Below, one piece after another: positions 12,001 through 15,000 of a stretch of 24,112 bases of DNA; the first letter of the stretch is position 1; each line of letters begins with the position of its first letter. Source of the stretch: a virus (lineage: Duplodnaviria; Heunggongvirae; Uroviricota; Caudoviricetes); the IMG/VR virus record IMGVR_UViG_2526164662_000032, positions 1 to 24,112 of that record, one strand, 5' to 3'. The position numbers are program-made.

Positions 12001-15000
12001 CCAGTGCCTGCTGGCCTGCCTCTTCTGTGGGAGGCTAATCGCTTTCAGGTCGCGAGTGACGGCTTTGTATTCCTTCCATGACACGAAGCGCATGCTGTTG
12101 CGCACCATATGCACGATGCATAACTGGATGCGGGCCTCCGGGAATTCTTTCAGGCCATACACACAGGCGATGAGGATATCGTTCAGACCGCGGTTTTTCA
12201 GTTCAGTCAGCACATTGAACCAGAAATTCGCCCCTTCATTTTCGGCCAGCCGCATCCCCAGGAGCTCTTTCTGACCTGCGATATTGATGCCCAGTGCTAG
12301 GAACATTTTTATGATAAAAAATTAGTGCAAGAAGACAAAGAATCGCCTTGCGCTAATGCTCTGAAACAGGTCACTAATATCATCTAAATAGTTGACTCAT
12401 AGTGACAGCATGTGTTGTGTCTTGCAGTATTATATAGCCTATTATTTAGATTGAAGCCATCATAATCTATTGATGTTAATGGTTTTTTATTGTTTGTTGT
12501 TCGGCTTTTTATACTAATTTGAGCGAAACAAAAAGATAAAAAGTTGTTTTTCGTGTCTTTAAGTGATACCAGATGGTATTGCGCTAAATGTACCAATGGG
12601 TATACCAAGAGCACTAAAAACAAAGGGGCAACCACTTTGTAACCCCTTGATTATTTGCAGAAGCGCAGAAAATCGAACTCTGGAACCCTTTCGGGGCATC
12701 CTTTTTCAAGAATGAAGAAAAAAATAACTAAAAAATCAAGTTGTTAGGAAGTTATTCATGGCTAGTGTACCAACTCTTTTCTGGGCTAATAGCTATGATT
12801 TGTTTGTATTATTTGTCTCTGTCTCTATTATTTTTGACATCCATGCGACTTCTGATATTGATAATCTCAGTTGTGGAGTTCTGTCTGCGCTTCCGGGAGG
12901 ACGCATATCAAAACTACAGGATCTTCTGTTAAACACTGTAAAGCCATCTACATTGCATGTTGTTGAGTCTAAGATACAATTTTTAGTAGATGATTTATCT
13001 GCTATAGGCCTAGATATTTCAGGTTGATGCCAAGTGTGTCCTGAAAAAATACTTTTTATTGAAAATGGCATTTTTATCCTCACATTATGTCTTTCTCTTA
13101 TAGTGCAATTTAATGTATTTAGAAACATTAAACTATGAATCTAAAAAGGCTACGCAGAGTACTGTTACACTTTAACAAATCATATTTACCACTCTGGAAA
13201 TGGGATGGCTGGTTCATAAAATAATGAGTCTTTTTCAACGGTTGTTACATTGGTGTACTGATGATTATGCCTTGTCGCTAAGAGCTACCATAACCGTACA
13301 GCGTGATTCATCCATGGCGAATAAATCGACTGATAAATCCCCCTGAGTTTCAGCTCTTGCTGTTGGACCTTGCCCGTTTCGCTATGGAACGCGTACCAGC
13401 TAGAGAATATTATTCGTTCTCCTCCAATGTTACGCAAGTTTTGTAAACGGTAACCAATCGTGATTAGTCCTGCATGTAACGGACATCAAGCTGTCTGGTT
13501 GATTTTTATTGCCAGCAGTTCGAGAGAGCAGACAACTGCGTCCGATGGAAAAATGGGCACGACAGGGTATTCAGGCAACCTCGCTGAGGAGGCTTATGGT
13601 ACAGATTGTAATGTGAAGTATAAAACGTTAAAAATTCCATTTTAGAAACTAAATAGCTGTAATATAAGTTCGATCTAATCTACTATTTTGACAGACAGAT
13701 TGTATCAAGAATTAGGGAGTATGAAATAGATGGCAATAACTAGTAAAATTAATTTTGCAACATTTAAATCGAACCATACAGTCAAATTCTAGTGCATATA
13801 TTTTGTGTGGCTAATATGCAAAAATATTGTTCTATTAGATTAAAATGGCATTCATCTTTGCTGACAATCATTTCCGGAACAAAGGGTTCACGGCTGAGAG
13901 GGTGTGGAGCGTTGCGTCGGATAAGTTCAGTGAGTGCATTGTGGTCATATAATGAACATATTTCTGAGTTTTTTGCATTTCTGACAAAAACACCAGTTTC
14001 AGGAATGCATAATGTTATCGGGCAATTCAGGTGTTGTTCATGACAGGAAAAGTCTTGATGACTAACAGTAAATGCATGAGAGTTAATTTTGTTTTGTATT
14101 GCACTACTGACGTTTTGGCGCGTACATGGGGTTGCACGGCTCTGTTCCATATATAAACGGAATGCCTGCAAAAAAGTATGGCCTCTGTTAAGCTGTATCT
14201 CCAGATTTTCTGCGAGAAGGCGATGCCCTCTTGCACTAAGGCGATCCAACAGTCCGCCGGAAACCGGTTCCACGCTAAAACTGTCCATAAATGAAATATG
14301 ATGAAGTCTCATAGTGCGGCCTCTCACAACAAGCTGTTCACTCTGACTAACTCTTCCGACATGACGTAAAGCCTCCAGTTCACTTTCAGACAATACTCTT
14401 TCACTCGAAAAGTTTAATATGACAGGCATATTTTCTCCCTCTTTAGTCTATGTTATTGAACCATATTGGTGACAGGAGTCAAGATACTAAATATGTGATA
14501 GGATTCAAACAAAAAATTAAATTTTGAACGAATGCTATTTACACATGTATTTTTTTAATTAAAATGATTATATACAATTTTTGTAAGCAAATTTTAATGA
14601 AAAGGATTTGTTATGCCAGTAAATGCGACAGGTGTGTCCTTCAGCTCTTTTGGTATCAGTTATCATAAAGATAATTCTTTCCGGGGCACCATCCGTGGGA
14701 AGAATGATGAGGTCGTGAAGTGTTCAATGGGAGAGCGCTCTATCCGCTTTAATGTTAACAAATTTAGCGGCTGTATACTGGAGACGGTAAGCAGGCAGAG
14801 TACTAAAGATATTCATGGATGGGTAAGTGATGAACGGACAGTATATCCGTCAAGGGTTATCAACCAAGAGATTGATAATTGCTGCCTTCAAAAAAATGCA
14901 AAAATTTCTTCTGAAGAGAGGAAAATGGTCTTTTCTCTTGTAAGTAAGGAGTTTGAACTAACTCTTGATGTTAAAGCGGCACAAAGTTCTATTAATCATA

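Follow-up and report, generated by a model that had tools for sequence, protein, structure and literature searches.

A lambda-type attR, probably a transplanted relic, in the effector locus of PPompW-type prophages of Escherichia coli

A stretch of 24,112 nucleotides from a tailed virus (Caudoviricetes; IMG/VR record IMGVR_UViG_2526164662_000032, positions 1 to 24,112; referred to here as the window) was found to carry a lambda-type attachment (att) site, with its core at 12504 to 12517, amid the effector genes of an Escherichia coli prophage. The layout of the window resembles that of Sp9/CP-933P in O157:H7, and 261 bp around the core (12300 to 12560) were 100% identical to the PPompW prophages of Shiga toxin-producing E. 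coli O145:H28, whose surrounding annotation matches the map of the window. In PPompW as delimited by its authors, the site lies at ~37.7 kb of 44.3 kb. Nakamura, Ogura, Gotoh and Hayashi determined the limits of PPompW experimentally in 2021 (PMC8112680) and described it as a lambda-like prophage that is defective and has its att, of 121 bp, in ompW. At the right end of PPompW lies an effector locus that can be exchanged and that holds attB sequences derived from the chromosome, named attB-in-PP_1 (yecE), attB-in-PP_2 (ykgJ/ecpE) and attB-in-PP_3 (ompW), with 81 to 87% identity. Other phages, including those encoding Shiga toxin 2a (Stx2a), integrate into these sites, and the question of how chromosomal att sequences enter phage genomes was explicitly left open (PMC8112680). 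The text of that paper makes no mention of ybhB, ybhC, serT or a tRNA, and no earlier description of the lambda-type site was found in a literature search.

The original prediction for this DNA took the site to be an attR that forms the right boundary of a tandem lambda-like array, and placed the effector and insertion sequence (IS) cluster from 12530 to about 18200 outside that array. Here, the site and its surroundings were compared with lambda, with the chromosomal attB of lambda in E. coli K-12 and with related prophages.

Results

Structure of the attachment site

The site has the architecture of an attR, with sib, P arm, core and B' flank in that order, and its orientation is that expected for a prophage with tail genes to the left. 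Formal alignment of window positions 12307 to 12521 with lambda (27529 to 27742) detected 80.6% identity over 216 columns (E = 5e-51), and this lambda-homologous stretch comprises the sib/tI hairpin, the P arm and the core. A P-arm likeness had been predicted from GGTCACTAAT, which begins at 12369, and the positions and strings given for it were exact. A database search with the site returned lambda (J02459) and other lambda-att phages at 80.6% (E = 2e-46). Lambda, HK97, HK106, HK629/630 and further phages with a lambda att matched at 80 to 84%, and these matches broke off at the core (query position 222).

A homologue of the lambda sib/tI hairpin (retroregulator and terminator) was located on the minus strand at 12316 to 12362 by alignment and folding. 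This hairpin is weakened by a C.A mismatch and folds at -14.7 kcal/mol (z = -3.6), compared to -24.3 kcal/mol for lambda and -28.7 kcal/mol for another copy in the window (8632 to 8690). The P arm retains both integrase (Int) arm-type sites in the lambda arrangement and at the correct spacing. The P1 region (12361 to 12380, plus strand) matches the 'int 1' site of J02459 (27583 to 27602) at 17 of 20 positions with AGGTCACTAAT conserved, while the P2 region (12391 to 12410, plus strand) has the same score against 'int 2' (27615 to 27634) and conserves CATAGTGAC in inverted orientation.

The core, GCTTTTTATACTAA, occupies 12504 to 12517 on the plus strand and is identical at 14 of 15 positions to the 15-bp common core of lambda (GCTTTTTTATACTAA, with its 7-bp overlap), one T of the T run being deleted, exactly as predicted. 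As a result of this deletion, the inverted core-type Int sites are 20 bp apart rather than 21 bp as in lambda. The two sites have the sequences CGGCTTTTT (C) and CAAATTAGT (B'). A pattern search allowing two mismatches or fewer detected a single occurrence of the core in the window. Directly to its right lies TTTGAGCGAAAC (12518 to 12529), the segment in which a resemblance to attB had originally been noticed.

Captured host flank and its right-hand joint

The resemblance to attB extended well beyond these 12 bases. Alignment of window positions 12506 to 12584 with K-12 attB in the ybhC-ybhB intergenic region (comparison sequence L002, 1832 to 1918, numbered from 805500) gave 82.8% identity over 87 columns (E = 1e-21) and spanned the core together with 68 bp of flank on the ybhB side. 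Both of the similarities that the original prediction had proposed to examine by formal alignment, to lambda and to the K-12 attB, were thus upheld. The captured host DNA, consisting of the B' arm and the ybhB-side flank, lies on the plus strand at 12518 to 12584 and differs from K-12 by one 9-bp gap, one clustered replacement of 5 nucleotides (nt) and otherwise four C-to-T changes. Empty attB sites in E. coli matched this segment and no other part of the site, at 81.6 to 82.8%. Among phage records, the only matches into the flank were from the bio-transducing phage DN1, which has an annotated attR and bio locus, and from vB_EcoP-720R6. Lambda-type phage genomes lose homology at the core, which supports the assignment of the flank as host DNA.

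Homology to the backbone extends for 68 bp beyond the core, up to position 12584 within the ybhB terminator hairpin. Neither ybhB nor bioA was found to the right of this position in the alignment with K-12; a serT-type relic and then espO are present instead of a continuous chromosome, and hence the suggested synteny with the gal-bio backbone beyond 12530 did not hold. No ybhC-side (B arm) sequence was detected in the window by BLAST with K-12 positions 805500 to 808000. A partner attL or second core was likewise absent from the 24-kb window, which reaches only ~12 kb to the left of the site and so leaves room for a distant attL; no B-O-P' site with a cognate int and xis was found to bound the same element.

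The host flank is joined at 12585 to 12586 to a second att relic, with K-12 homology ending at 12584 and homology to the attR of a serT-integrated prophage (strain PE164) starting at ~12586 to 12591, which is the pattern of an illegitimate joint. This second relic (12586 to 12711, plus strand, with the tRNA on the minus strand) is of the serT type and contains a phage-side arm, a terminator hairpin (~12617 to 12650, minus strand) and ~57 to 60 nt of the 3' part of tRNA-Ser, which breaks off in the anticodon arm. Identity was 86% to the PE164 attR and 80% to the empty serT locus. ARAGORN and Rfam detected no tRNA in 12586 to 12711, in agreement with a truncated and decayed tRNA fragment. A terminator scan of 12200 to 13200 gave one plus-strand match, which was not above chance expectation; it is a matter of speculation whether the sib hairpin or the serT-derived hairpin might now terminate espO transcription.

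In O157:H7 and related contigs (L005, L012, L017 and L019), the captured flank is interrupted at 12553 by the IS66-family element ISEc8, which has produced a target duplication of 8 bp (12546 to 12553).

Collinearity with the right end of Sp3

Sp3 of strain Sakai is a lambda-att effector prophage located at the true gal-bio attB. Its right end has the order tail fibre, nleB2-1, nleC, nleH1-1, a small IS256-like fragment, nleD, sib-P-core-B' and ybhB. Window positions 9902 to 12584 were collinear with this end (L032). The tail-fibre end (window 9902 to 10045; L032 9375 to 9517) was 93% identical, nleH (10010 to 11004; 12413 to 13378) 85% and the attR with its flank (12312 to 12584; 14506 to 14785) 81%, while the IS256-like fragment (11639 to 11806; 13403 to 13566) was 82% identical and inverted. 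This collinearity indicates that the site was transplanted as the end of an Sp3-like prophage, along with a sliver of host flank. The proposed transplanted segment (9902 to 12584, plus strand) comprises the last ~72 nt of a tail-fibre gene, nleH1-2, nleF, the IS256 fragment, sib, the P arm, the core and the 68-bp flank.

Inverted IS256-like fragments were observed beside a lambda-type P arm in prophages at the true gal-bio site, namely Sp3 and those of one Shigella flexneri genome and one E. coli genome, window positions 12187 to 12273 being matched by L008 (1953 to 2039) and L010 (3967 to 4053). These observations point to an old IS remnant common to this lineage of prophage ends, combined with a local inversion.

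Distribution and occupancy

The site was present in 538 of 5,426 complete E. coli genomes, always on the chromosome, and the carriers included O157:H7, O55:H7, O111, O103 and enteropathogenic E. coli (EPEC) O127:H6. All 538 copies were contiguous across the core and none was rearranged there or contained an inserted phage, so that use as an attB, with occupation and a duplicated att, was not observed in these genomes; the same context was found in 14 viral and metagenome contigs. Reading 18 copies in other genomes and contigs showed a core run of five T residues in each. The lambda CAGC at the C core site is retained in the copy of O55:H7 and in metagenome contig L023.

The block from 17 to 18200, which is the effector locus of the ompW prophage, travels as one piece, and more than 500 genomes have the region from 12530 to 18200 within this conserved block. 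In O157:H7 and O55:H7 the 3' part of ompW adjoins the block on its right, the partial ompW lying ~5 to 6 kb to the right of the site when the O157-specific ISEc8 insertion is discounted. In PEC240, the block (17 to 18205) is joined at a 21-bp att not to ompW but to the real yecE-yecD-aspS chromosome (L004 26161 to 26825, corresponding to window 18205 onward). This arrangement points to a site-specific or inter-prophage exchange in which attB-in-PP_1 and the yecE att took part and the chromosome was rearranged. The locus of O55:H7 strain TB182A (L006, 8373 to 9866) is shorter, with espO truncated by an IS3 fragment and nleG and espM1 absent, and an EAST1-like open reading frame is annotated within the IS fragment to the left of the lambda-type site.

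Genes and att modules around the site

The surroundings were mapped from the RefSeq annotation of near-identical DNA (PEC240 and O157) and from our own comparisons. The left part of the window contains the tail-tip gene J, interrupted by ISEc22, followed by lom and tail-fibre genes. A frameshifted nleG-like gene lies between the tail-fibre genes and nleA (6929 to 8254, minus strand).

A complete HK022-type attP is located at 8629 to 8920, with sib, P1/P2, its own core around CCTTCTGACATGGAAGTTG, a site TATCAAGTTGTTA resembling the H' site of integration host factor (IHF), and P'1-3. It is adjoined by an HK022-type integrase pseudogene (8915 to 9909, minus strand), which is N-terminally truncated and frameshifted, and the attP-int module as a whole (8629 to 9909) was 83.5% identical to sib-attP-int of HK022. 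With nleA on one side and a tail-fibre fragment on the other, this module has the vegetative order (cargo-attP-int) and is a further point at which modules of the effector locus are joined. The pseudogene is the only lambda-family int near the lambda-type site, and no int of lambda specificity was found in this vicinity. The possibility that the att at 8629 to 9028 and the site at 12504 were opposite ends of a single tandem lambda array was rejected, as the cores differ and the former is a P-O-P' site of the HK022 type.

To the right of this module are a 72-nt 3' fragment of a tail-fibre gene (9903 to 9974, from the annotation), nleH1-2, nleF and a fragment of an IS256-family transposase pseudogene (11674 to 12306, minus strand), the last of which abuts the left edge of the lambda homology at 12307; the placing of nleH1-2 and nleF follows the PEC240 and O157 annotation. 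Beyond the serT-type relic lie espO, nleG, espM1, an IS630 remnant, a further nleG and an IS3 remnant.

The effector locus contains other chromosome-derived att sequences with 71 to 91% identity to K-12. Two ykgJ/ecpE-like stretches (15221 to 15383 and 17820 to 17994) are each ~71% identical to K-12. The latter is the published attB-in-PP_2 and the former, just past espM1, looks like an extra copy; a similar stretch is found in Sakai Sp3 after nleC (L032 11793 to 11955). The 21-bp yecE-like att at 18180 to 18200 is the published attB-in-PP_1 and is occupied by a phage in the window. This second prophage (18201 to 24112) has early genes, a 428-amino-acid integrase (18240 to 19526, minus strand) and an excisionase-like open reading frame (19560 to 19814, minus strand). 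Its best match among complete genomes (strain OkiPb01707) reached only position 20069, and an O145:NM strain was 100% identical across the junction at attB-in-PP_1.

Discussion

Our results indicated that a half-phage, half-host att sequence of the lambda type lies inside a prophage whose own att is in ompW. We consider it likely that this sequence is the fossil attR of a lambda-att effector prophage of the Sp3/CP-933K kind, which was moved together with a piece of host flank and is now inert. A prophage of this kind would once have occupied the gal-bio attB in a relative of E. coli. Its right end, consisting of the 3' end of the tail-fibre gene, nleH, nleF and the attR, would then have been moved with 68 bp of chromosome to the cargo region of a different lambdoid phage by an illegitimate cut made outside the att, within the ybhB terminator hairpin. 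This could have occurred through an event like that which gives rise to lambda-bio transducing phages or, by another route, through homologous recombination in the tail-fibre gene coupled to an illegitimate joint on the right. The piece would since have been carried passively in the exchangeable effector locus of PPompW, between the HK022-type attP-int remnant and the serT-type att remnant. The site is apparently a further, previously undescribed, example of the chromosome-derived att sequences known in this locus.

Four known systems bear on this interpretation. The live attR (P-O-B') of Sakai Sp3/EDL933 CP-933K has the same order of sib/tI, P1, P2, core, B' and ybhB-side flank as the fossil, and its neighboring cargo is collinear (tail-fibre end, nleH, IS256-like fragment, effector and attR). 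The fossil, however, is ~81% identical to the live site, has a core one T short and a flank of 68 bp instead of one running into ybhB-bioA, has neither attL nor int, and sits inside another prophage at ompW. Lambda-bio phages arise through an illegitimate excision joint, and the transducing junction of DN1 (MF374379) resembles the present one in having P-O-B' followed by bio-side host DNA and then an illegitimate joint to phage DNA. A junction of this form, with attR, bio-side host DNA and a non-att joint to phage DNA, is found at 12585/12586, and the excision itself would be inferred from it. The window differs from lambda-bio in that its host DNA at this junction is limited to 68 bp, bio genes are absent and the phage partner at the joint is a serT-type att arm instead of int-xis-exo. 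The published attB-in-PP_1, _2 and _3 sites share the prophage family, the effector locus and an origin from a chromosomal att locus with the present site (82.8% identity to K-12 against 81 to 87%; PMC8112680). In contrast, they serve incoming phages as attB, whereas the lambda-type scar was unoccupied in all 538 genomes. The HK022 attP-int at 8629 to 9909 has its sib and P-arm design in common with the site but is a complete P-O-P' with a different core and is not a partner of the core at 12504.

The site probably no longer works as a recombination site. Recombination by Int requires identity of the overlap region between partner sites, and because of the one-T deletion the overlap region of the site no longer matches the lambda 7-bp TTTATAC. 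The short core, the lack of a partner attL, the lack of a nearby int of lambda specificity and the lack of any occupied genome all argue for an inactive site.

Several observations weigh against the interpretation of the site as a transplanted Sp3-like attR. The attB flanks of the 5,426 complete E. coli genomes were all 81.6 to 82.8% identical to the captured flank, with no class at 90 to 99%; this search by alignment covered E. coli. A relaxed pattern search of species representatives in GTDB gave five matches, all with a K-12-type AATAC flank, and one contig of Escherichia sp. E1V33 had only the GAT variant in common with the captured flank. Scans of IMG/VR and Joint Genome Institute (JGI) metagenomes revealed no intermediate in which the P-arm variant of the site was located at a genuine gal-bio attB; the exact flank variant occurred there in 14 contigs, all with an Sp9-like context and some with the O157 ISEc8 insertion. 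The absence of a 90 to 99% class would imply that the donor was a relative outside the sampled E. coli or that the copy has decayed since its capture. As neither a donor nor an intermediate was detected, the order and mechanism of joining proposed above are tentative. In addition, the inactivity of the site is deduced from its sequence, and the tolerance of Int for a 20-bp core spacing could differ from that assumed.

The same present structure is predicted by an alternative in which a complete B-O-B' was captured first, an Sp3-like lambda-att phage then integrated into it, and the left part with the attL was later deleted. Precedents for such a prophage within a prophage exist in the same locus in the form of the attB-in-PP_1, _2 and _3 sites with integrated phages (PMC8112680), and the 83% identity of the flank to the chromosome falls in the range of these published sites (81 to 87%). 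Guest-like remnants, namely the int pseudogene and the tail-fibre fragment, are present to the left of the site, and deletions could have erased other traces. Sequence from the B arm (ybhC side), however, is absent throughout the window, and the int pseudogene on the left is of the HK022 type with an intact P-O-P' and a different core, not the expected B-O-P'. Moreover, the viral and metagenome scans detected no empty B-O-B' with the flank variant, and none of the matches among genome representatives carried this variant. We therefore regard this order of events as rather unlikely. The boundary proposed in the original prediction, that of a live attR at the right end of the current prophage array with the chromosome or an unrelated element beyond, agrees with the attR architecture and correct orientation of the site but is very improbable. 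Backbone homology extends for only 68 bp, there is no attL in the window and no lambda-type int nearby, the published att of the resident prophage is the 121-bp sequence in ompW, ~5 to 6 kb to the right, and in more than 500 genomes the DNA to the right forms one conserved block with the site, so that the synteny comparison refutes this view. The site does mark a right end, that of a former lambda-att prophage module, but it is not the boundary of the present element, and the effector and IS cluster to its right is not outside material but more of the accreted prophage-end DNA of the same prophage.

A role for the site as a functional secondary landing pad for lambda-att phages, or as a partner in exchange with a gal-bio prophage such as Sp3 that would drive rearrangements (attP with attR, or attL with attR), would be compatible with the good conservation of the P1 and P2 arm sites, with the lambda CAGC core-site sequence in O55:H7 copies and with the presence of lambda-att prophages in many of the strains that carry the site (up to six places per genome). 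None of the 538 copies was interrupted at the core, the spacing is 20 bp as against 21 bp, and the overlap differs from TTTATAC, all of which make present use of the site most doubtful. Chance resemblance in AT-rich DNA deserves practically no weight. The 14-mer core by itself is not significant, being matched with two or fewer mismatches in 23 of 100 shuffles, but the expectation values of the P arm (5e-51) and the flank (1e-21), together with their correct order and orientation, refute this explanation. The transplanted attR of an Sp3-like prophage remains the reading that we favor.

It is possible, at a level that we would still call less than probable, that the lambdoid effector loci of enterohemorrhagic E. 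coli (EHEC) and EPEC grow by serial capture of whole prophage right ends, each with its cargo, its attR and some tens of bp of host flank, and that the published, functional attB-in-prophage sites are re-used attR scars and not attB copies that were acquired independently. The lambda-type site is an unambiguous P-O-B' with 68 bp of flank. At attB-in-PP_1, ~85 bp of the yecE 5' end lie on the right side (71 of 80 positions identical), with homology only from the core rightwards, and no yecE homology was found on the left side. The left flank was collinear with the P side of one yecE-integrating Stx2a phage, with a local score of 23 compared to 13.1 ± 2.2 for shuffled sequences; the score was reached by 4 of 2,000 shuffles, and the similarity is short and to a single phage (positions concerned: window 18100 to 18200, L005 17240 to 17420 and L031 2440 to 2700). 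To judge from these alignments, attB-in-PP_1 may itself be an attR-type scar re-used as an attB. Together, the lambda-type and serT-type relics and attB-in-PP_1 are suggestive only of effector loci that accrete prophage ends with an attR and a little host flank.

As the site is most likely without a present function, its value is historical and mechanistic rather than functional. On a practical level, att-like sequences within prophage clusters can mislead the calling of boundaries. The locus is an effector island of EHEC and EPEC (nleA, nleH1-2, nleF, espO, espM1 and nleG) and a landing site for Stx phages, and the site is a concrete footprint of the assembly of such an effector locus and of the entry of host-derived att sequences into phage genomes. 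If growth by serial capture were correct, the window would contain examples of it from three or four loci (gal-bio, serT, yecE and ykgJ/ecpE), and it would provide an answer to the question, left open in PMC8112680, of how chromosomal att sequences enter phage genomes.

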